The notes: generated by a model not told the origin, from the sequence alone. A stretch of 64,000 nt of DNA from a candidate division WOR-3 bacterium (GCA_039801905.1 JBDRVQ010000003.1:203-64202); one strand, 5' to 3'. Positions 600 to 61,174 are shown, counted from the stretch's first letter. A program made the numbers and translations.

Positions 600-1775
600 A
601 TGCGAGAAAGAGACTTCTTGACTTTATTTCTTAAAATTGGACTATTATCTATTTTCACCTGTGCTCCCACCCAGCAAACAGTAAAACCACCATCAAGAGA
701 AGAGAGTGAGGAGAAGAGGCGTCTGGCGGAGCAGAATTATTCCCTGGGTGCCGAGTATTTCAAACAACGGGAATACGATAAGGCCTTAGAAAAATTCCTT
801 TCGGCAATTGAACTTGATACCACATTTTATGAGGCATTCATCGCCGCCGGTAATGTCTATAAGATAAAAAGGGATTTTGGGGAAGCGGAACGTTATTTCC
901 GACGGGCACTCTCCTTGGACCAAAGGAAGGTAAAAGGTTATGAGGCTTTAGCCGACCTTTACCTCTCCGCCAAAAGATACCAAGCCGCAGAAAGCCTCTA
1001 CCTTACAGGGATCCAATTTGATTCCACATTTTCCGAACTTTATTTGGGGCTGGCCGAAATCTATAATGAGACCGGGGAAAAGAGAAAAGCCGACTCTCTT
1101 TATAAAAGAATGCTTTCCCTCTTTCCGGACGATCTCGGTATTTATCGCCTCTACGGCGATTTCCTTCTAAGGGAGGAGCGGTATAAAGAAGCACGGGAGA
1201 TGTTTCGCCCCTGCTGCCAAAAATTTCCCGAATATGTGGAACTGAGAGAGAAGTATGCCGAAATACTCTTCAATTTAAAAGAATACGATAGTGCTTTAGC
1301 CCAACTCAATTTCATTTTGGAAAAGGAACCAGACAATTTGAGTGCCACCTTACGGCGGGCTGATGTTTATGCCCGGAAGGGAAATTTTAATAAAGCAAAG
1401 GAGGATTTAGCTAAGGCGAAGCGGTTAGCCCCAAATGATGCGCGGGTCTTTGTTCATAATGCCGATTTCTATCAAATGATTGGTGATTTAGCCAAAGGGG
1501 AGGAGGAGGTGAAGGCGGCTTTAAGAATTGACCCCAATTTGGATATTGCGCTCGTCGTCTACGGTGATATCCTAAAAACAAGGGCGGCGAGTGCCTATAA
1601 AGCAAAGAGAAAGGAAGATGCGTATTACCTCTATAAGGCGGCCTATTCCCAATACGAAAAGGTGCCCAGTAAGAGTCTTTATTATAGATATGCTTCCATA
1701 GAGATGAGCCGCTGTAAGACCTTTATGGACAAGATAAAGGAAGAGTTGTGGTTTGAAGGGAAAAAGATTGAATGA
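600..1775 (+). CDS. TPR-repeat protein, probable lipoprotein
   Basis: Repeated 34-aa TPR-like helices (AxxxYxxAL...P patterns). N-terminal hydrophobic segment ends in LSIFTC. Confidence 0.7.
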   Translation: MRERDFLTLFLKIGLLSIFTCAPTQQTVKPPSREESEEKRRLAEQNYSLGAEYFKQREYDKALEKFLSAIELDTTFYEAFIAAGNVYKIKRDFGEAERYFRRALSLDQRKVKGYEALADLYLSAKRYQAAESLYLTGIQFDSTFSELYLGLAEIYNETGEKRKADSLYKRMLSLFPDDLGIYRLYGDFLLREERYKEAREMFRPCCQKFPEYVELREKYAEILFNLKEYDSALAQLNFILEKEPDNLSATLRRADVYARKGNFNKAKEDLAKAKRLAPNDARVFVHNADFYQMIGDLAKGEEEVKAALRIDPNLDIALVVYGDILKTRAASAYKAKRKEDAYYLYKAAYSQYEKVPSKSLYYRYASIEMSRCKTFMDKIKEELWFEGKKIE

Positions 1776-2299
1776 GAAGAGAGATGACTGATGGTAAATG
1801 GCAGAAGAAGGTTCTTTTGCTTAATCAGAATTTTGAACCGATCACCATCACAGGGGCGAGGAAGGCGATTTGCCTCTTATACCTAAAAAAGGCAGAATTG
1901 GTATCATCTTACGAAGGGATGAAGGTGAAAGGTGTTTCTACATCTTGGCCCTTACCTTCCATCCTTCGCCTCTGCCATTATGTTCGGGTGCGCCGGCGGG
2001 AGATACCGCTGACCAAAAGAAATATCTTCCGCCGTGACAATTACCAGTGTCAGTATTGCGGTCGGACCAATGTCGCCTTAACTACCGACCACATCATCCC
2101 CAAATCCTTAGGGGGTGAGGATACCTGGGAAAACTTAGTCACCGCCTGCACCGAATGTAATACCAAAAAGGGCGCTAAGACCTCTAAGGAATTTCCCTTA
2201 AAACTTATCCGCCGCCCCAAAAAACCTAACACTTTTACCTTCCTTTTACATTCCCTTTCCGAAATTCCTGAAGACTGGAAACCTTATCTCTTCCAGTAA
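1772..2299 (+). CDS. HNH endonuclease family protein
   Basis: CQYCGR...TDHIIPKSLGGEDTWENLVTACTECNTKKG matches the HNH/CxxC motif layout. Its start overlaps the upstream stop by 4 nt. Confidence 0.8.
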   Translation: MRREMTDGKWQKKVLLLNQNFEPITITGARKAICLLYLKKAELVSSYEGMKVKGVSTSWPLPSILRLCHYVRVRRREIPLTKRNIFRRDNYQCQYCGRTNVALTTDHIIPKSLGGEDTWENLVTACTECNTKKGAKTSKEFPLKLIRRPKKPNTFTFLLHSLSEIPEDWKPYLFQ

Positions 2300-13657: not shown

Positions 13658-15637
13658 TCAATCTTTAAGCCTTAAGCCAAAGAAAATGGTCCGGCCGGGT
13701 CGGGGATAGTCGCGGTCGGAAATCGTATTGCCAAAGGCTTCCGCATAAGTCACATCAAAAAGGTTTTCTGCCTTAAAGGCAAATACTAACCGGCTTATCA
13801 ATCTCCTCTCCAAGCGAAGGCCAAGAGTGAAATAACTCGGTAGCCGCTTCCTTTTCATATAGACCTTAGGAAAACTATCATAAGCGGGGTAGTAATTGAC
13901 CTTATCACCAACAAAATTCCCTTCCAAATGAAGAAGGGTATGGGTATCTCGGAAGAGAAGGGAAGGGGAAAGCTTAAATGAGGGGAGAAATGCCGCCCGT
14001 CGCTTTATTTCGGCAAAGGAATCCCAATAGACCATCTCCTTCCGCAATTGGGTCGCCTTTTTCCAATCGCCAGAAAGAGAGAAGAGAATATTATGGGAAA
14101 TTAGCCATTTCCCTTCCCATTCTAAACCGAAAACTTCCTGCTGGTCAACATTGGTTGGCCGCCAAAAGCCAGCGGTATCGGGAAACCAGGCGATTAAGTC
14201 CTTCGTCTTTCGGTAAAAGAAAGTTAGAGAAACGGGATTAATATCAAAACCTGACTGGAAAGTCCAACCCACCTCCGGTTTTAAGGAGAGATTACCACTT
14301 CTGGGCCAATATAAGTCGTTAAAGGTTGGCGCTCGAAATGCCCGAGCGAGATGAAAACGAAACTTACCGGAGGGAAGCGGGTAGGTGATACCGAAACTGG
14401 GACTAAAAAAGCCACAAAAGACCTTATCCCAGTCGTAACGAAAAGAGGAAAAGAGGGAAGGTTTTTCCCAAAAATTACCTTCCAGAAAGAGACCGACCCT
14501 TTCCCCCTTTGGGTTATACATAGTATCCTTATAGGAGTAAGTTCCTAAATCATAAAAGTAGGAATGGCTCTTAAAATCGTCCCTCTTAAAATCAATACCT
14601 CCGGCAATTTGGAGCGGCATCTCTTCTGGTGCCAGAGTGGAAGTCAGATTTCCGCCGTAGGTCTTTATCCAATAGGTATCTTGATAAATCGCCGTATCCG
14701 TTGAGAACTGGTCAACCCATTGGTAACGAGTGCGATTGGCATTAAAGAAGGGTGAAAATTTGATTTTAAGGTTAGAGGAAGGCGCAAAACTGATCTCACC
14801 ACCAATTCGGTATTGGTTATCCCTTTGCCGGTCATAGATTGAGGAAGCGGTAGAATCGCCATACCTCGGAATTGTCTCCCGTGGTGGCTTCGGCCCACAG
14901 ATTCCCATCTCCTTCTCTTCGTAATTAAAGTTTAATCGGAGGTTTTCTAAGTGAGCGAGAGAGAAACTTCCTCCTAAGGTACTGGCATCTTCATTTGACC
15001 GAACACCTTTGGTCTTCTCCCGGTGGAGAGAGAAAAGGAAGCCGGTTCTATCATCCCCATTGATACCAGAAGTGAAATTAAATAGGTAAGTGTTAAAAGA
15101 TGGACGGAGAGAATTAGAAAAGATATTGCCCCCACTCAACTCCCCCAAGATATTCAATCTCCTGGGTTTTAAGTGATAAGGACTCTTCGTGATAAAATTG
15201 ACCACTCCCCCTAAGGCATTTGCTCCATAAAGACTGGAAGCCCCTCCTTTTAAGATTTCTATCCTCTTTAGATTATCCGTGGGAATTAGCCCCAAGTCAG
15301 GAGTTCCGGTGGCTGGGGAATAGAAGGGGATACCATCAACCAAAACCAATACCTGTTGACTGGTGGAACCAAGGAGAGAAAGGGAAGAGAGACCCTTAAG
15401 GAAGGTATAATTCCGAAAATCAATCCCTTCTATACCGGAGAAGATACCTGACAAATCACCAAATCCCTTTAATCGGATAACCTCTTCGGAAATGATGTTA
15501 ACCGCTACCGGTAACTTCTCAATCTGGCTAGTGACCCGAGAGGCGGTGATGAAGATTGTATCAACCGTGTAGGTTTGAGCGAGTAAAGATAAGGGTATAA
15601 TCTCTAAGATAAAGAATGTGATTTTTTTTGGTAACAT
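13658..15637 (-). CDS. TonB-dependent receptor, BtuB-like (probable cobalamin/corrinoid uptake)
   Basis: Plug-domain motifs (ITASR..., IEILKGGASSLYGANALGGVVNFIT) and a long beta-barrel region. Start chosen at MLPKK, 6 nt after AAGGAGG. A cobalamin riboswitch lies immediately upstream. Confidence 0.85.
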   Translation of the reverse strand: MLPKKITFFILEIIPLSLLAQTYTVDTIFITASRVTSQIEKLPVAVNIISEEVIRLKGFGDLSGIFSGIEGIDFRNYTFLKGLSSLSLLGSTSQQVLVLVDGIPFYSPATGTPDLGLIPTDNLKRIEILKGGASSLYGANALGGVVNFITKSPYHLKPRRLNILGELSGGNIFSNSLRPSFNTYLFNFTSGINGDDRTGFLFSLHREKTKGVRSNEDASTLGGSFSLAHLENLRLNFNYEEKEMGICGPKPPRETIPRYGDSTASSIYDRQRDNQYRIGGEISFAPSSNLKIKFSPFFNANRTRYQWVDQFSTDTAIYQDTYWIKTYGGNLTSTLAPEEMPLQIAGGIDFKRDDFKSHSYFYDLGTYSYKDTMYNPKGERVGLFLEGNFWEKPSLFSSFRYDWDKVFCGFFSPSFGITYPLPSGKFRFHLARAFRAPTFNDLYWPRSGNLSLKPEVGWTFQSGFDINPVSLTFFYRKTKDLIAWFPDTAGFWRPTNVDQQEVFGLEWEGKWLISHNILFSLSGDWKKATQLRKEMVYWDSFAEIKRRAAFLPSFKLSPSLLFRDTHTLLHLEGNFVGDKVNYYPAYDSFPKVYMKRKRLPSYFTLGLRLERRLISRLVFAFKAENLFDVTYAEAFGNTISDRDYPRPGRTIFFGLRLKD

Positions 15638-15672
15638 AATTCCTCCTTTCCTCGCCAAGAGGAATTAAGAAA

Positions 15673-15872
15673 GTGGTAAAGAGGTCTCCTGGCTTGCGGG
15701 TCATCCTACTCTCCCCACCTTCCCATCCCGCAGATATTATGGGCGGGATAGTGGTATTAAGGGGATTTCGTCGCCGCTCACAGTGGGCAGGACCGCGCGG
15801 GATTTCCACCCGCTTCCCTAATCCCGATGGGATATTTATCGGGACTCCCCTTAAAGAGAGGACCTTTACCAC
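15673..15872 (-). promoter_or_regulatory. Cobalamin (B12) riboswitch
   Basis: The minus-strand RNA contains GGGAAGCGGGTGGAAATCCCGCGCGGTCCTGCCCACTGTGAGC and the B12 box AAGCCAGGAGACCTC. The closing helix is GTGGTAAAG (15872-15864) paired with CTTTACCAC (15681-15673). It sits between a promoter and the receptor SD/ATG. Confidence 0.88.
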
Positions 15873-15881
15873 CATCCTTTC

Positions 15882-15909
15882 ATTATAAAAAGTTGGGGGG
15901 GGAAGTCAA
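15882..15909 (-). promoter_or_regulatory. Sigma70-type promoter for the riboswitch-btuB-like transcript
   Basis: Minus strand reads TTGACT (15909-15904), 16-nt spacer, TATAAT (15887-15882), about 10 nt before the riboswitch P1. Confidence 0.7.
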
Positions 15910-16298
15910 GTAAAGTAATTCTCTTGGTTATTTGGAAGAAGATTTTGGCTAAAATAAAAGACTGCCCAAGAGATGCAATGCCCAAAAATACTATCTACCT
16001 CGCCTTAACTAAAGAAAAAGAGAATGACCTAAACGATAAAACAACAAAGATGTGGTTTCTAAAGTCCAATTTTTGGCTTGGTCTTGTGGTGAGGTATTTG
16101 GGGAGATGGCAGTCTGGTGGTTGCGTCTCTTTGGTTTTAGGAAAAAGGTTGTGATTTGGTCAGACGGTGGTTTGAGATTTTGATACTTCTCAACCTGGGG
16201 CTTAGGACCTCTTAAAACCTTTCAGGATCATCTTGACCATGAGCAAATCTTTATTAAGGTTTTTCCCTTTTTGGGTGTTATATTATATGGAGGCAAAT

Positions 16299-16522
16299 AT
16301 GGGAGTGAGAGATGCCTTAAACAGGATTAAGGTTGCTCCCTTTGGCATTATTTTACCGGAGGAGTTATGAGAATAAAGATAAAGAAGAAAGACCCGATTA
16401 AGAGGTTTGGAGATATACCACCAAAGATTTGGCTTTCAATTTCCCAAAGCGACCGAGCAGAAAATAAAGGTCTAATAAAGGAGGTCTTATTGGCAATCAC
16501 GGAGGTCCTCCAAAATAACTAA
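16299..16522 (+). other. Two coupled mini-ORFs (23 aa at 16299-16370; 51 aa at 16367-16522), unverified
   Basis: GGAGG lies 5 nt before the first ATG, and the two ORFs overlap as ATGA. ORF2 contains one array-like unit, ggtctaataaag (G-L-I-K). I recognise no homology. Confidence 0.25.
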
Positions 16523-16567: not shown

Positions 16568-16812
16568 GGAGGGTTTTATCTTTATAAAAAGTGGGGGGCG
16601 ATATAGGGAGCGGTATCGGGGATCTAATAGGGGGCGTAAGGGAAGGTCTAAGGGAGGGTGTAATCCTGGATTTAATGGAGGGTCTAAGAGAGGGTTTAAT
16701 GGCGGATATAATAGAGGGTGTAATTGGGGGTCTAACCGAGAGTCTAATAGGGGGTGTAATCCCGAGCCGTATCGGGAAGGTAAGGGAGGGTTTAACTGGG
16801 GATATAATTGGG
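16568..16812 (+). repeat. Array A: conserved head (GGAGGG-N8-TTATAAAAAG-GTG...GGTATCGGG) plus 16 tandem 12-nt units, consensus GGTYTAATnnrr
   Basis: Units phased from 16621 to 16812, and 15 of 16 carry TAA at unit positions 5-7. There are no spacers. A GTG-initiated frame (16591-16875) is open, and so is an antisense frame. Confidence 0.85.
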
Positions 16813-16871
16813 AGAGACTTCCCAATAAAAGGTGGGTGCCACCAAAATCAGCACCCGCCAAAGGGTACACC

Positions 16872-17060
16872 ATGAGTATTTTTCTTAAAATCTCTAAAAA
16901 ATCAAGGGTTAAAAGAAACCGCCGAGAGCAAAAGAGAAGACGGAGGCTCCTTCAAAAAAATAGGCTCTGGCTAAAAAGTATCCTTGACGAGGTAGTGAGG
17001 AACGAGCTAAGGGATCAATTGAGGAAACCTCCGTTGGTGAGTTCCGAGGCATTCAGTTAA
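16872..17060 (+). CDS. Hypothetical highly basic small protein (62 aa)
   Basis: ATG ORF between the two convergent arrays (MSIFLKISKKSRVKRNRREQKRRRR...). Weak SD and no recognisable family. Confidence 0.2.
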   Translation: MSIFLKISKKSRVKRNRREQKRRRRLLQKNRLWLKSILDEVVRNELRDQLRKPPLVSSEAFS

Positions 17061-17143: not shown

Positions 17144-17424
17144 GGCTATAATCTTTCTAATTAACCCCTTATTTATTATTCCAATTAGTCTCTCAATTAG
17201 ACCTTCGTTTATTATCCCAATTAGAGCCCTTATTAGACCTCCGGTTAGATTCCTAATTACCCAGCCAATTATTATCTCTATCAGTCCTTATATTATAGTT
17301 CCAATTAGAAGTTCTATTATTCCCTTAATTAAACTTTCTATTAGGCCTCTTATTAAACCTATATTTAGACCCCCGATACCATCCCCTGTATGCTACACCC
17401 CTTTTTATAAAAATAAATCCCTCC
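17144..17424 (-). repeat. Array B: same head as arrays A and C plus 19 tandem 12-nt units on the minus strand
   Basis: Units phased from 17371 to 17144: 17 have TAA, one TGA and one TTA at unit positions 5-7. The head differs from array C by 1 nt over 36 nt. The G-L-I-x frame has TAG as codon 2 (17395-17393) and TAA at 17290-17288. Confidence 0.85.
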
Positions 17425-17469
17425 CTTTCTTTTGGAAACCAACCCTTATCCGCTTTTTAGTTTACTCTA

Positions 17470-17498
17470 ATTATAAACTAATACTTAAAATTTGTCAA
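17470..17498 (-). promoter_or_regulatory. Consensus sigma70 promoter driving array B
   Basis: Minus strand reads TTGACA (17498-17493), 17-nt spacer, TATAAT (17475-17470). It lies 45 nt upstream of the GGAGGG of the head. Confidence 0.7.
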
Positions 17499-17961: not shown

Positions 17962-18636
17962 ATGAGTTTTATTCTCTTTGTCTCTTTCCTTTTTAATCTT
18001 GGCCAATGGGTCAGTTATTGTAATGAATATCCTGACCTCTTTGTCTTTTACGGGCCGGAGAAAGCGATGCTCATTAACCCAAGTGACTTTGGTATCACTT
18101 ATCCCTTAACGATTGAATCCTTACGCACCCGGTTTTACAGTTCCATGGGTGGTTTTACCGACTCCGCCTTCGTTTATAAGATTTATGCTGGGGATGGTCA
18201 AACCTTGCTTTTTGAATCGGAAACCCTTATCGCCCTTCGCCCGCCCCAACATTTCCGGTATGCTTTAAGAAATCCCGTAGTCATTGAAAGTGGTAACTTC
18301 TATGTGGCGATTGCCAGCCGGACCTATCGCGAACCCTTTGGTTATCCCTTCATCGCTACAGATGATAATTCAACTCCCCAAAAGAGTTTCTATGGTCTGC
18401 CGGGTCGCTGGACTTTATCCGACTACGGGGAGTACTTTATCTTCGCCTTTGTCAGTTGGACGCCAACTGGTGAAAAGGAGAGAAAAGGAGAATGGATTGG
18501 TGGAAAAAGAGGGAACGAAAGGATTAAGAAAATCTACAATGTGAAGGGAGAATTACTAACCGAAAGTAAAAAACTTCCCCCCGGGGTCTATTTCTTGAAG
18601 ACCGGGGATAAGGTGAGGAAGGTGATAAAGTTATGA
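17962..18636 (+). CDS. Secreted protein with a T9SS-type C-terminal sorting domain
   Basis: N-terminal hydrophobic signal. The C-terminal KIYNVKGELL...LPPGVYFLKTGDKVRKVIKL resembles Por-secretion tails. Confidence 0.6.
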   Translation: MSFILFVSFLFNLGQWVSYCNEYPDLFVFYGPEKAMLINPSDFGITYPLTIESLRTRFYSSMGGFTDSAFVYKIYAGDGQTLLFESETLIALRPPQHFRYALRNPVVIESGNFYVAIASRTYREPFGYPFIATDDNSTPQKSFYGLPGRWTLSDYGEYFIFAFVSWTPTGEKERKGEWIGGKRGNERIKKIYNVKGELLTESKKLPPGVYFLKTGDKVRKVIKL

Positions 18637-29084: not shown

Positions 29085-30029
29085 TTAAGGGCTTAGTAAG
29101 CCTTTGGCTTGGAAACTGAAATAATCGGTTTCGTTGCGACCGATGATGATATGGTCTAAGATCCTAATTCCCACCAAACTTAACGCTTTATTTAACTCTT
29201 TGGTAATGGCTATATCTTCGGAGGAAGGATCAGGTTCCCCAGAAGGGTGGTTGTGGACCAAAATGACCGAAGATGCTTGCTTCTGGACCGCCTCTTTTAA
29301 AACCTCTACCTTGTCAACGATACTGGCATCCCGACTCCCCCTTGATAACTCCTGACAATCAAGGACTTTATTTCGGTTGTCTAATAATACGAGGTAGAAA
29401 TACTCCTTTGGCGCATCTCTCAAATAAGGTCCGAGGAAGTTTTTAACAAACTTAATCGCGCCTCGGACATCTCTAATCTTCTCTTGGGCAAGTGCTTCTT
29501 CTCGGAAGAGCCTCTTCCCCAGTTCTAAGGCGGCTTTAATCTGCGTTGCCTTGGCGAAACCGATTCCGGGAATTTTTTGGAGTTCAGAAAGGGGGGCGTT
29601 ATCAATTCCCCTTAGGGAATGGAAGCGGTTGAGGAGTTCTCGGGCTAAATCTTCTGCGGAGCGCCCCTCACTCCCGGTTCTTAGAATAATCGCCAAAAGT
29701 TTTCCTAAGGAGAGTTTTTCCGCCCCTTCTTTTAAGAGTAACTCCCTAGGTCTTTCCTCCTTCACCCACTCCTTTATCGGTTTATGAGAGTTATCGCTTT
29801 TAAGTACCTCTTTAATCTTCCTTTGCCAAAGGAGGCACTCCTCTTTCGTTTGCAAGCCCAACTTCTCAATGATCTCCTCTTTCATCTTTTCCGGCAGTTT
29901 CCCTTTCCGGAAGATGACCTTTCCCGCCCGATAGATGGGATAAAGCCTCCTCGCAGTTAAAAAAGAGAAGACCTCTTGTTGGTCGCGAAAGAACATTAGG
30001 AAATATAAATCACTTTTTTTGTAAGTCAA
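29085..30029 (-). CDS. radC: RadC-family JAB/MPN protein with an N-terminal extension of about 85 aa
   Basis: ERPRELLLKEGAEKLS, a HhH region, and the HNHPSGEPDPSSEDI JAMM motif. The listed TTG start is part of a TTGACT hexamer; ATG at 29996 is an alternative start. Confidence 0.8.
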   Translation of the reverse strand: MTYKKSDLYFLMFFRDQQEVFSFLTARRLYPIYRAGKVIFRKGKLPEKMKEEIIEKLGLQTKEECLLWQRKIKEVLKSDNSHKPIKEWVKEERPRELLLKEGAEKLSLGKLLAIILRTGSEGRSAEDLARELLNRFHSLRGIDNAPLSELQKIPGIGFAKATQIKAALELGKRLFREEALAQEKIRDVRGAIKFVKNFLGPYLRDAPKEYFYLVLLDNRNKVLDCQELSRGSRDASIVDKVEVLKEAVQKQASSVILVHNHPSGEPDPSSEDIAITKELNKALSLVGIRILDHIIIGRNETDYFSFQAKGLLSP

Positions 30030-30101
30030 GGCGATAAAAAAAGATATGGGGAGAGGAGTGAGCGGACGGATGGCGAATTATTTTATAAGAAGTTTTATAA
30101 A

Positions 30102-30358
30102 TTAAGTTAAGCCGAGATTTAGACTTCCGGTTAGACTATCAATTGGGTTTTCGGTTAAACTTATAATTAAACCTCTAATTAGATTTCCAATTATCCTTCT
30201 TATTACCCCTACTTTTATTCTTTCTTTTAGACCCTTAATTAGAATGTCAATTAAGCCCAAGTTTAGACCAGGGATTAAACCATCATTTAGGGCTTTTATT
30301 AGGCTCCCGATACCATCCCCTGTATGCTTCACCCCTTTTTATAATGGTAAAGCCCTCC
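30102..30358 (-). repeat. Array C: conserved head plus 17 tandem 12-nt units on the minus strand
   Basis: Units phased from 30305 to 30102; 16 of 17 carry TAA at unit positions 5-7 and one carries CAA. The head is GGAGGG (30358-30353)-N8-TTATAAAAAG-GGGTGAAGCATACAGGGGATGGTATCGGG. The GTG frame 30332-30102 is open (76 aa). Confidence 0.85.
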
Positions 30359-30720
30359 TGTTTGATAAAGATTTTATGATTTAATGCCCTTTTTATTTAA
30401 GTACTACTTACCTGATAACACCTCCTCAATTTCTCTTCAAGGGTTGGGATTAGAACCCAATTTCTTACGGAACCCTTCTTCTCTATGACATCAAAAAAGG
30501 CAAAACCATTAATAATTAGTTTCTCCATAGTCCTCTATAATAAATAACGGAAATACCCCCCAATTTCTGACACCAAATTTTCCCCTTTTTTATAAGTCTT
30601 TGACTCTTCGCAACATATCTTTGCCAAAAGAATACCTCACCGGCCCTTTCCATTTTCCACATAATATCTCCGGGGACAAAGAAAATTGACTTTTTCTAAA
30701 TTTTAAGGATAATCCTTTCT

Positions 30721-60436: not shown

Positions 60437-60913
60437 TTTTCCTCCACCTTTTATTTTAACCAATTCTTTTTTTCTGTCAAGAAAAAGGATGAAAGGAAAT
60501 TTATACCTCATCCTTACTTAAAAATCATCTGGGAATAATGGCATGTCTCAATAATTAAAAAGCAAATTCCGGTGGAGAGTTATTTTGATAAACCCAAAGA
60601 GAACCTAATAGGCTCTTGGGAAAAGTGGGCATTGGAAAATGGTTCGGTCTTATGTTGGTTATCGGCGGTATGATACCGAAGAGGAGTATGAAATTTGAGA
60701 CCCTCTTTTAAGGATTATTTCCCTCTATGTACGGTAAGATTCTATTTTGAGGAAAGAGGTTCAAATGCTTTTAGTGTGAGTAATTTAAGAATAAAAATTT
60801 GCCCAGACTAATCTCTCCTTAACCAAAAAGTTGAATGTCATTAAACTTTTTTAACGGCGGTCTTTTCTTATAAGTCCTTGATTTATAATAACTTATTTGA
60901 TTTGGGCTTGAAA

Positions 60914-61174
60914 ATGGGGGGCAGTATAGGGGATGGTATCGGAGGTTTAATAAAAGGTCTAACTTTTAGCCTAATTGAAGGTTTAATTTTAAGTCTAATC
61001 TTCGCTCTAATTAATGGTTTAATGGTAAGCCTAATCTCGGGTCTAATTAAGTGTTAAATGGAAAGCCTAATTAAAAGTCTAAAGGAAATTCTAATTTAGG
61101 GTATAGTTAGGGGTTTAATCTCTGGTCTAATTGAGGGAATAATAAAGGGTCTAAAAGAAGGAGTAATTGTCTAG
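60914..61174 (+). repeat. Array D: ATG-GGGGGC...GGTATCGGA head plus 19 tandem 12-nt units
   Basis: Units phased from 60944 to 61171: 17 of 19 carry TAA at unit positions 5-7, one carries TAG and one is shifted by 1 nt. The G-L-I-x frame hits TAA at 61055-61057 and TAG at 61097-61099, yet the periodicity continues to 61171. Confidence 0.85.

Follow-up and report, generated by a model that had tools for sequence, protein, structure and literature searches.

A high-copy family of 12-nt phased TAA arrays, probably non-coding, in candidate division WOR-3 bacteria

Several described systems are built from short blocks repeated in tandem. TIGR arrays, the arrays of the TIGR-Tas systems, consist of two distinct alternating repeats of 8-12 nucleotides (nt) with ~9-nt spacers, giving a unit of ~36 nt, and they carry box C/D motifs and adjoin a Tas (Nop-domain) gene (Faure et al. 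2025; PMC12045711). CRISPR arrays pair near-identical repeats of 25-36 nt with unique spacers of similar size. The RNA antitoxins of type III toxin-antitoxin systems (ToxI, CptI, TenpI) are made of 2-6 near-identical 34-45-nt pseudoknot units, followed by a terminator and a downstream toxin of the ToxN/AbiQ family. Here we analyzed a tandem array of 12-nt units, designated array C, that lies upstream of radC and on the same strand in a 64,000-nt stretch of DNA from a candidate division WOR-3 bacterium (GCA_039801905.1, JBDRVQ010000003.1:203-64202; this whole stretch is called the window, and positions are counted from its first letter). The family to which array C belongs looks like a nucleic-acid element of an undescribed kind, neither a small protein gene nor a leader of radC.

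Read on the minus strand, array C consists of the 17 phased 12-mers given in the initial annotation, 16 of which have TAA at the same place and one of which, unit 14 (AACCCAATTGAT), has CAA instead. We scanned the window for at least six of eight TAA trinucleotides at a fixed spacing, with periods of 9-15 nt. Period 12 was found in 47 scan windows, all of them inside exactly four arrays (A, B, C, and D; Table 1), and there were none at periods 9-11 or 13-15. The feature is real and statistically overwhelming. The consensus of 72 units was R-G-T-C-T-A-A-T-T-G-A-R, with T5, A6, and A7 retained in 68, 68, and 70 of them, respectively. Each unit has about 8 conserved and 4-5 variable positions, with ~40-50% identity at the latter, and arrays of different copies are unlike in unit content and unit number. 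The 26 substitutions that distinguish array copies or strain variants on metagenome contigs include none at T5, A6, or A7 (P = 5.6e-4). Selection is at the nucleotide level, for R-G-Y-N-T-A-A-(T) plus 4-5 nearly free bases, repeated every 12 nt, and the head is under selection as well.

The units are preceded by a 36-nt head (TAAAAAGGGGTGAAGCATACAGGGGATGGTATCGGG, minus strand 30306-30341), which was found again in front of array B (minus strand 17372-17407) with a single mismatch, A>T, that creates GTG TAG. Shuffled sequence yielded 0 expected matches to this head. The sequence search bore out that the two heads differ by the one base responsible for the TAG, and it supports the earlier suggestion that array C is the third copy of an array family whose heads remain near-identical across 13 kb while the units diverge. 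When the heads were aligned, as had been proposed, five copies were found to share AGGAGGG, a gap of 9-10 nt, TTATAAAAAG, (T)GGGG, and GC-AT-A-Y-AGGG; four of them continue with GATGGTATCGG. A consensus built from 8-14 additional copies carries the head further upstream, to AAAATTTTATAAAAAGGGAGGGGTTTATCT. The final 24 nt of the head resemble two degenerate units, with TAC or TAT where TAA is expected.

Table 1. Features of array C, of the other arrays, and of the surrounding sequence (window positions unless another contig is named)
Feature	Position	Strand	Description
Array C	30102..30305	-	Consensus RGYCTAATNRRR over 17 12-nt units; 16 of these have TAA at positions 5-7
Head core of C	30306..30344	-	39 nt, ATTATAAAAAGGGGTGAAGCATACAGGGGATGGTATCGGG; contains the -10-like hexamer TATAAA and the nominal GTG at 30332; 97% identical to 17372-17410 (BLAST)
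Extended head of C with GGAGGG (30358-30353)	30345..30360	-	Spacing of 9-10 nt from GGAGGG to the downstream TTATAAAAAG shared by copies A, B, C, and E and by the consensus of other copies (loose ends ...AAAAAGGGAGGGGTTTATCT)
Open reading frame of 76 amino acids, GTG start	30102..30332	-	Units read (small-L-I-x)n; hypothetical protein in public metagenome-assembled genomes; probable by-product of the nucleotide pattern
C-rich tail (CGCCATCCGTCCGCTCACTCCTCTCCCCATATC), then T7 (30042-30036)	30036..30075	-	Pairing with the G-rich head possible; possible 3' end of an array transcript
Promoter-like site of radC, TTGACT-16-TATATT	30002..30029	-	10/12 matches; between the array and the radC ATG at 29996
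Second multi-copy module, containing CTTATAAAAAAGGGG	30544..30605	-	198 nt upstream of the C head; 55 nt upstream of the head in another copy
Array A, units	16621-16812	+	16 units
Array A with head	16568..16812	+	GGAGGG...TTTATAAAAAGTGGGGGGCGATATAGGGAGCGGTATCGGG, then 16 units; frame f0 open (94-amino-acid reading frame 16591-16875)
Array B, units	17371-17156	-	18 units
Array B with head	17156..17425	-	18 units; in-frame TAG at codon 2 and internal TAA
Perfect sigma-70 consensus TTGACA-17-TATAAT	17470..17498	-	~50 nt upstream of the array B head, same orientation
Array D, units	60944-61171	+	19 units
Array D with head	60884..61171	+	More diverged head (ATGGGGGGCAGTATAGGGGATGGTATCGG); TATAAT upstream at 60884-60889; in-frame TAA and TAG, the repeat resuming in frame after each
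19-unit array	L140 1748-1521 (GCA_900174595.1)		Head recognizable (GGAGGGGATTATCTTTATAAAAAGTGGGGAGCGATACAGGG); terminator-like hairpin
7-unit array	L146 (GCA_900174595.1)		After mfd
5-unit array	L136-L138		Closest sister species

We estimated copy number from contigs of the source metagenome placed on the locus (runs X1 and X2). The 39-nt head core reached a depth of ~2040 versus 15 in the flanks in X1 and ~3950 versus 20 in X2. Because this is 130-190 times the depth of the flanking single-copy DNA, the family is a dispersed, high-copy one, with the head at ~100 or more genome-equivalents. In each run, 37-59 distinct contigs link the same head to varying array starts and to varying upstream sequence, and the array starts at these loose ends are again phased units (e.g. 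TGTCTAATTATT and GGTTTAATAGAA). The genomic neighbours of the copies are mutually unrelated. One contig of a public metagenome-assembled genome (MAG), JBDRVO010000004.1, stops at window position 17444, adjoining the B head, and the Logan contig L145 likewise starts beside a head; since such contigs end at or next to array heads, the elements break up assemblies of this lineage made from short reads.

Matches of identical proteins place the window in several near-identical hot-spring MAGs (GCA_039801865.1, GCA_039801945.1, and GCA_965648995.1), all with a C locus of 100% identity, and the RadC homologues carry candidate division WOR-3 names. A phmmer search with the C translation against 1.84 billion representative proteins returned one chance match and just three relatives, all of them paralogous array reading frames encoded in this MAG series; two (locus tags ABIK99_05290 and ABIK99_03325) share one genome. 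These three are C-type arrays with 67-72% identity, identical unit order, and whole-unit insertions and deletions, which argues that whole arrays duplicate and then diverge. Related arrays were present in two other WOR-3 genomes; none were found in ~19 kb of one further relative or in ~95 kb of more distant WOR-3 genomes. A scan of genome contigs with eight phased TAAs returned mostly tandem repeats of simple sequence, such as telomere-like ACCCTA and (ATA)n, with no relative among the matches listed. Metagenome and viral contigs scanned with GGTATCGG plus four phased TAAs gave chance matches in unrelated phage genes only, and viral contigs scanned with five RGYYTAA units gave simple repeats only. 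The best explanation restricts the family to one clade of candidate division WOR-3 bacteria from hot springs. An array of a different kind, an unrelated 12-nt tandem repeat in which CCCCTAACGCTT and CCCTAGACGCTT alternate, was seen on a WOR-3 contig of 59% GC (L157, 2731-2862, minus strand) beside an ISL3 transposase and a HEPN gene.

The units can also be read as protein, and we compared the two levels of constraint. In frame f0, each unit encodes a small residue, Leu, Ile, and a variable residue, and the frame is open in C (76 amino acids, aa) and in A (94 aa). Its codon choice is far from that of genes. NTA makes up 96 of 97 Leu, Ile, and Val codons, compared with 25% in the long open reading frames (ORFs) of the window (P about 5e-57); CTA was used 50 times though it is the rarest Leu codon here (6.8%); and Ser is AGY in 23 of 23 cases against a background of 22.7% (P about 1e-15). 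Position 6 of the unit, a third position in f0, changes 0 times in the 26 substitutions, and position 3 changes 5 times; overall, 8 synonymous and 18 non-synonymous changes make a near-neutral split. In-frame stops number 7 in 101 units, compared with 10.0 +/- 2.2 expected from unit-column shuffles. Internal stops of all three kinds occur in four of the seven arrays (B, D, L140, and L146), and after them the repeat resumes in phase. With a chance of ~0.3 that 17 units stay open, two open arrays among the five long ones are what chance would give.

The signals around this frame do not fit a gene either. In C, 20-21 nt separate GGAGGG from the GTG at 30332 (overall, its distance to the nominal start is 17-21 nt), whereas the genes of the window that have a Shine-Dalgarno sequence place it most often ~5 nt from the start, in agreement with the initial annotation, which had considered GGAGGG too distant to serve this GTG. 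The element that follows array A stands in a different reading frame in P0204. Because synonymous sites are frozen, stops are not avoided, substitutions outside TAA are near neutral, and signals and frames are at odds with translation, the 76-aa ORF most likely arises as a side effect of a purine-rich pattern that carries TAA out of frame. We regard the arrays as a previously undescribed high-copy element family of the WOR-3 clade that is probably non-coding.

A number of features, taken together, argue for an RNA rather than a DNA element: the perfect promoter consensus upstream of the B head, the TATAAT before array D, T-runs, a terminator-like hairpin after the L140 array, a purine-rich and C-poor strand, an array body predicted to be unstructured, and contigs from three metatranscriptome assemblies that join head and array. 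T-runs lie 75-100 nt past the last unit in all five long arrays. The forward strand of the element has 55-67% purine and 8-14% C, and in fold predictions the array body has no more structure than shuffled sequence (z = +1.1 and +0.4). The sequence around the TATAAT of array D recurs beside other copies, and the TATAAA inside the C head may act as a -10 element. Short low-depth contigs in the metatranscriptome-labelled libraries X8, X13, and X14 link the head to array units of other copies, and the X8 contig reaches 51 nt upstream of the head, approximately the distance of the B promoter; these contigs lend weak support to an RNA product. Scanned against Rfam at the gathering threshold, the whole window contains only a cobalamin riboswitch and a tRNA, and scans of the array regions ranked by E-value gave chance matches only (E > 3). 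The riboswitch (RF00174, 102.8 bits, minus strand 15662-15884) lies upstream of a 666-aa ORF (13658-15658), beside the intergenic region of arrays A and B.

Array C is thus one of many dispersed copies of a family built of head, array, and tail. We consider it quite possible, though still short of probable, that each copy forms its own small transcription unit for a multivalent RNA platform. Such a unit would run from the promoter-like elements at or upstream of the head to the T-run, and its product would be a C-poor, unstructured RNA of ~300-400 nt displaying ~17 evenly spaced single-stranded (C/U)UAAU motifs behind the conserved G-rich head. This RNA could serve as a sponge, a scaffold, or a nucleation-and-spreading site for a putative sequence-specific nucleic-acid-binding protein, with the head as its nucleation or processing site. 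A bolder version, which we regard as unlikely, would make the arrays the nucleic-acid part of an undescribed ribonucleoprotein or nucleoprotein system (not a CRISPR/TIGR guide, a Csr-type sponge, or an antitoxin), with the head nucleating assembly, one protein subunit per 12-nt unit reading (C/U)UAAU, and ~100 loci per genome forming filament-like or multivalent particles. We also discarded several ideas that no test supported: primase initiation sites (CTA/TTA; the 64 kb contain both orientations), a G-quadruplex in the head, target traps of the IS5 type, and Rho rut sites in antisense.

Several observations weigh against the RNA platform. Three raw-read hot-spring metatranscriptomes and one assembled one contained nothing from this organism at all, and the head contigs of X8, X13, and X14 have a depth of 2-7 and no direction, so that carry-over of DNA, which favours multi-copy sequence, is possible. 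A canonical promoter was found only in B and a canonical terminator only in the L140 copy. The C-rich stretch before the T-run is predicted to pair with the G-rich head in B (p ~0.95) and in C (~0.5-0.6), and this pairing may be a trivial outcome of G-rich versus C-rich composition; we dropped it as structural evidence, because it cannot be separated from composition and the z-scores of whole elements are positive. The stop-codon test is weak, with P = 0.12 for depletion. Frame f0 is open over 57-137 aa in two of the five long arrays and in at least three paralogues, and some copies could still give a peptide product. No partner protein emerged from the analysis, and no known binding site corresponds to the motif. 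The sample itself comprises seven arrays plus fragments.

Of the other explanations, a DNA-level or selfish element survives best, and we judge it a possible but less than likely one. The arrays would then be phased binding sites on double-stranded DNA for a nucleoid-associated or other protein, a recombination or insertion hot spot, or a functionless MITE-like repeat; in the selfish version, recognition by a transposase or recombinase would conserve the head while slippage lets the interior drift. The very high copy number and the breaking of assemblies at heads are as expected for such an element, as are the C-type paralogues with unit insertions and deletions, the patchy presence among close relatives, and the presence of several more small modules, also multi-copy, in these intergenic regions. 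The partial complementarity of head and tail can be read as imperfect terminal inverted repeats, and YTAA resembles the target sites of some IS5-group elements. However, only the head end is high-copy, the tail of C having no excess depth, and no transposase was seen beside any copy. A period of 12 bp does not keep step with the DNA helix, and the strong strand asymmetry, with promoter-like and T-run features consistently oriented, also weighs against this reading. Purifying selection on TAA inside the arrays would be needless for a drifting stuffer.

Less likely again is a multigene family of small repeat proteins of the form (small-L-I-x)n with the N-terminus M-x-x-x-GDGIG, in which C would be an intact 76-aa gene and B, D, and L140 pseudogenes; the products could be amphipathic or membrane-active peptides or often-inactivated type I toxin-like genes. 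Among the forward frames, f0 meets the fewest stops, and it is open in both A and C; public annotation lists three paralogues as hypothetical proteins of 69-137 aa, and a GTG or ATG start stands at the same position of the head. AlphaFold returned for the C peptide a low-confidence helix only, which counts nominally for a protein and is in itself uninformative. The head-tail pairing also recalls the 5'-3' fold-back of type I toxin mRNAs. Yet one reverse frame is as open as f0, codon choice at synonymous sites is fixed far past codon bias, stops come near the chance rate with the repeat continuing in phase beyond them, the ratio of non-synonymous to synonymous changes is near neutral, and there is no usable Shine-Dalgarno sequence. 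The translations vary widely in physico-chemistry (A is highly charged, D hydrophobic), and their exact four-residue period gives no single amphipathic face on an alpha-helix. No Pfam or NCBIfam family matched the f0 translations of A, B, C, and D at E < 0.1, a homologous-protein search with the C peptide found no match, and the phmmer search left the family at its three relatives.

It is very improbable that the array is a long 5' leader or co-transcribed regulatory element of radC (or, for array D, of nfo), as the initial annotation had suggested for radC. Array C does share its strand with radC and has no canonical hairpin terminator in the gap, and array D is likewise directed at nfo. The initial annotation began radC at 30029 (ORF 29085-30029), ~70 nt from the array. 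Both the public MAG annotation and the homologues of ~300 aa give a 303-aa protein starting at ATG 29996, which sets the gap at ~105 nt instead; the apparent TTG start at 30029 is the first (-35) hexamer of radC's own promoter-like site, and the T7 run comes before that site. Nor is the association conserved. In the relative whose RadC is 77% identical, a 5-unit array on the opposite strand is all that the mazG-radC spacer contains; at 67% identity, this spacer is 48 nt long and has no array; at 62%, other genes lie upstream of radC with no array there, and the 19-unit array is found elsewhere in the genome. Close relatives lack the array at this locus, and by the refutation that its own proposal had named, the leader reading fails, although some transcripts of the array may still read through into radC. 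Arrays A and B converge without a downstream gene, and the L140 and L146 copies adjoin other genes. With the head at more than 100 genome-equivalents, a link to a single gene is implausible and the place beside radC is one of many contexts; the best explanation is that array C is not a leader of radC.

The least probable reading, a TIGR- or CRISPR-like guide-RNA array or a ToxI-like RNA neutralizing a downstream toxin, can draw on the leader-plus-array layout at many loci, on the 24- and 36-nt periods in the output of Tandem Repeats Finder, and on the position just upstream of a gene, as for toxI, but it is almost certainly wrong and is largely refuted by anatomy: there is no 24- or 36-nt super-period beyond chance (identity at unit lags of 2 and 3 is not consistently above a null of shuffled unit order), each unit has one 8-nt conserved block and 4-5 free bases where TIGR arrays have two alternating repeats with 9-nt spacers (PMC12045711), box C/D motifs and nearby Nop/Tas or cas genes are missing, the 12-nt units are divergent where those of antitoxin RNAs measure 34-45 nt and are near-identical, and the downstream gene encodes a housekeeping RadC/JAB protein.

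The DNA around the arrays has further features of its own, and the genome seems rich in small dispersed modules around them. The module upstream of the C head (minus strand 30544-30605, ~60 nt, AAGACTTATAAAAAAGGGGAAAATTTGGTGTCAGAAATTGGGGGGTATTTCC...) stands at ~27 times the flanking depth in the source metagenome, and assemblies break there. Between it and the C head lies a 43-aa ORF (minus strand 30397-30528) that is called as a gene in two MAG annotations; it matches no Pfam family and has no credible second copy among the compared loci. Short multi-copy segments also occur at 60631-60723 (~25-40 times the flanking depth) and at 16249-16355 (~7 times), in both cases a few hundred bases before an array head. 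The segment 60755-60847, directly upstream of array D, has zero depth in the contigs of runs X1 and X2 while its flanks are covered, and it is either a strain-specific stretch or an assembly gap.

After array A, a multi-copy stretch (plus strand 16824-16987) has a depth of 134 versus 15. This element also follows a C-type array in P0204 and is present in 600-750-nt contigs of two metatranscriptome-labelled runs. An Arg-rich ORF of 62 aa (16872-17060, KKSRVKRNRREQKRRRRLLQK...) lies here as well; we rejected it as a candidate partner, as it has no Pfam family and no other copy among the compared loci. A terminator-like hairpin, GGGTGCTGATTTTGGTGGCACCC, with a T-run lies at 16834-16856 on the minus strand, ~300 nt downstream of array B, and a B transcript reaching it would cover the Arg-rich ORF and the end of array A in antisense. 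Elsewhere in the window, 600-2299 (plus strand) encodes a 391-aa TPR protein that overlaps a 175-aa HNH endonuclease (PF01844, PF14279) by 4 nt. This pair was considered as TIGR-Tas-like and rejected, since it has no Nop domain and lies 15 kb away.

Should the arrays prove to be functional RNAs or protein-binding arrays, they would constitute a novel class of high-copy elements from an uncultured phylum. Their signature, one trinucleotide in strict 12-nt phase behind an almost invariant head, has no Rfam or Pfam match and is unlike the arrays of CRISPR, TIGR, and ToxI. There are practical consequences as well: present annotation of the copies is inconsistent, calling them hypothetical proteins of 38-137 aa, the arrays fragment the short-read MAG assemblies of these organisms, and they demonstrate that a periodic nucleotide constraint can yield long ORFs that mislead gene callers.

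In their general layout, the arrays resemble those of TIGR and CRISPR, in which short conserved and variable blocks also alternate between a leader-like conserved start and a terminator-like end. In contrast to TIGR arrays, they are made of a single 12-nt unit with one conserved block and a variable part of 4-5 nt. RTGATGA (box C) is absent from both strands of A-D and CTGA (box D) occurs 0-2 times, and the genes next to the arrays, namely radC, mazG, nfo, the gene for a 224-aa protein without a Pfam family (17962-18636), and the riboswitch-controlled gene, include no Tas gene. Compared with CRISPR, a unit of 12 nt that mixes ~8 conserved and 4-5 variable positions replaces the long repeats and equally long spacers. 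Like ToxI, CptI, and TenpI, array C is a tandem repeat directly upstream of a co-oriented protein gene; its units are short and divergent, however, and the downstream RadC (PF04002, PF20582) has its own promoter-like site.

The nearest functional analogy is with the sponge small RNAs CsrB, RsmZ, and CrcZ, RNAs of a few hundred nt with 6-22 short motifs that titrate a protein. In these, irregularly spaced hairpin loops present the motifs (GGA, which binds CsrA/RsmA, or A-rich CA), and a genome has 1-3 such genes, whereas the present arrays keep UAA in strict 12-nt phase in a predicted unstructured RNA and have ~100 copies; GGA counts vary from 6 to 12 across the arrays, and what is invariant is TAA, not GGA. 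As high-copy intergenic elements that break short-read assemblies, the arrays are similar to REP/BIME, the Correia/NEMIS MITEs, MIRU, and the cyanobacterial STRR heptamers, and with MIRU and STRR they share the occurrence as tandem arrays at many loci. REP and MITEs have no internal periodicity and are palindromes or framed by inverted repeats; the units of MIRU measure 40-100 bp, and those of STRR are near-identical heptamers. A unique conserved head followed by degenerate units that keep one trinucleotide in phase is a combination that none of the REP, MITE, MIRU, and STRR elements has and that sets the present family apart from them.
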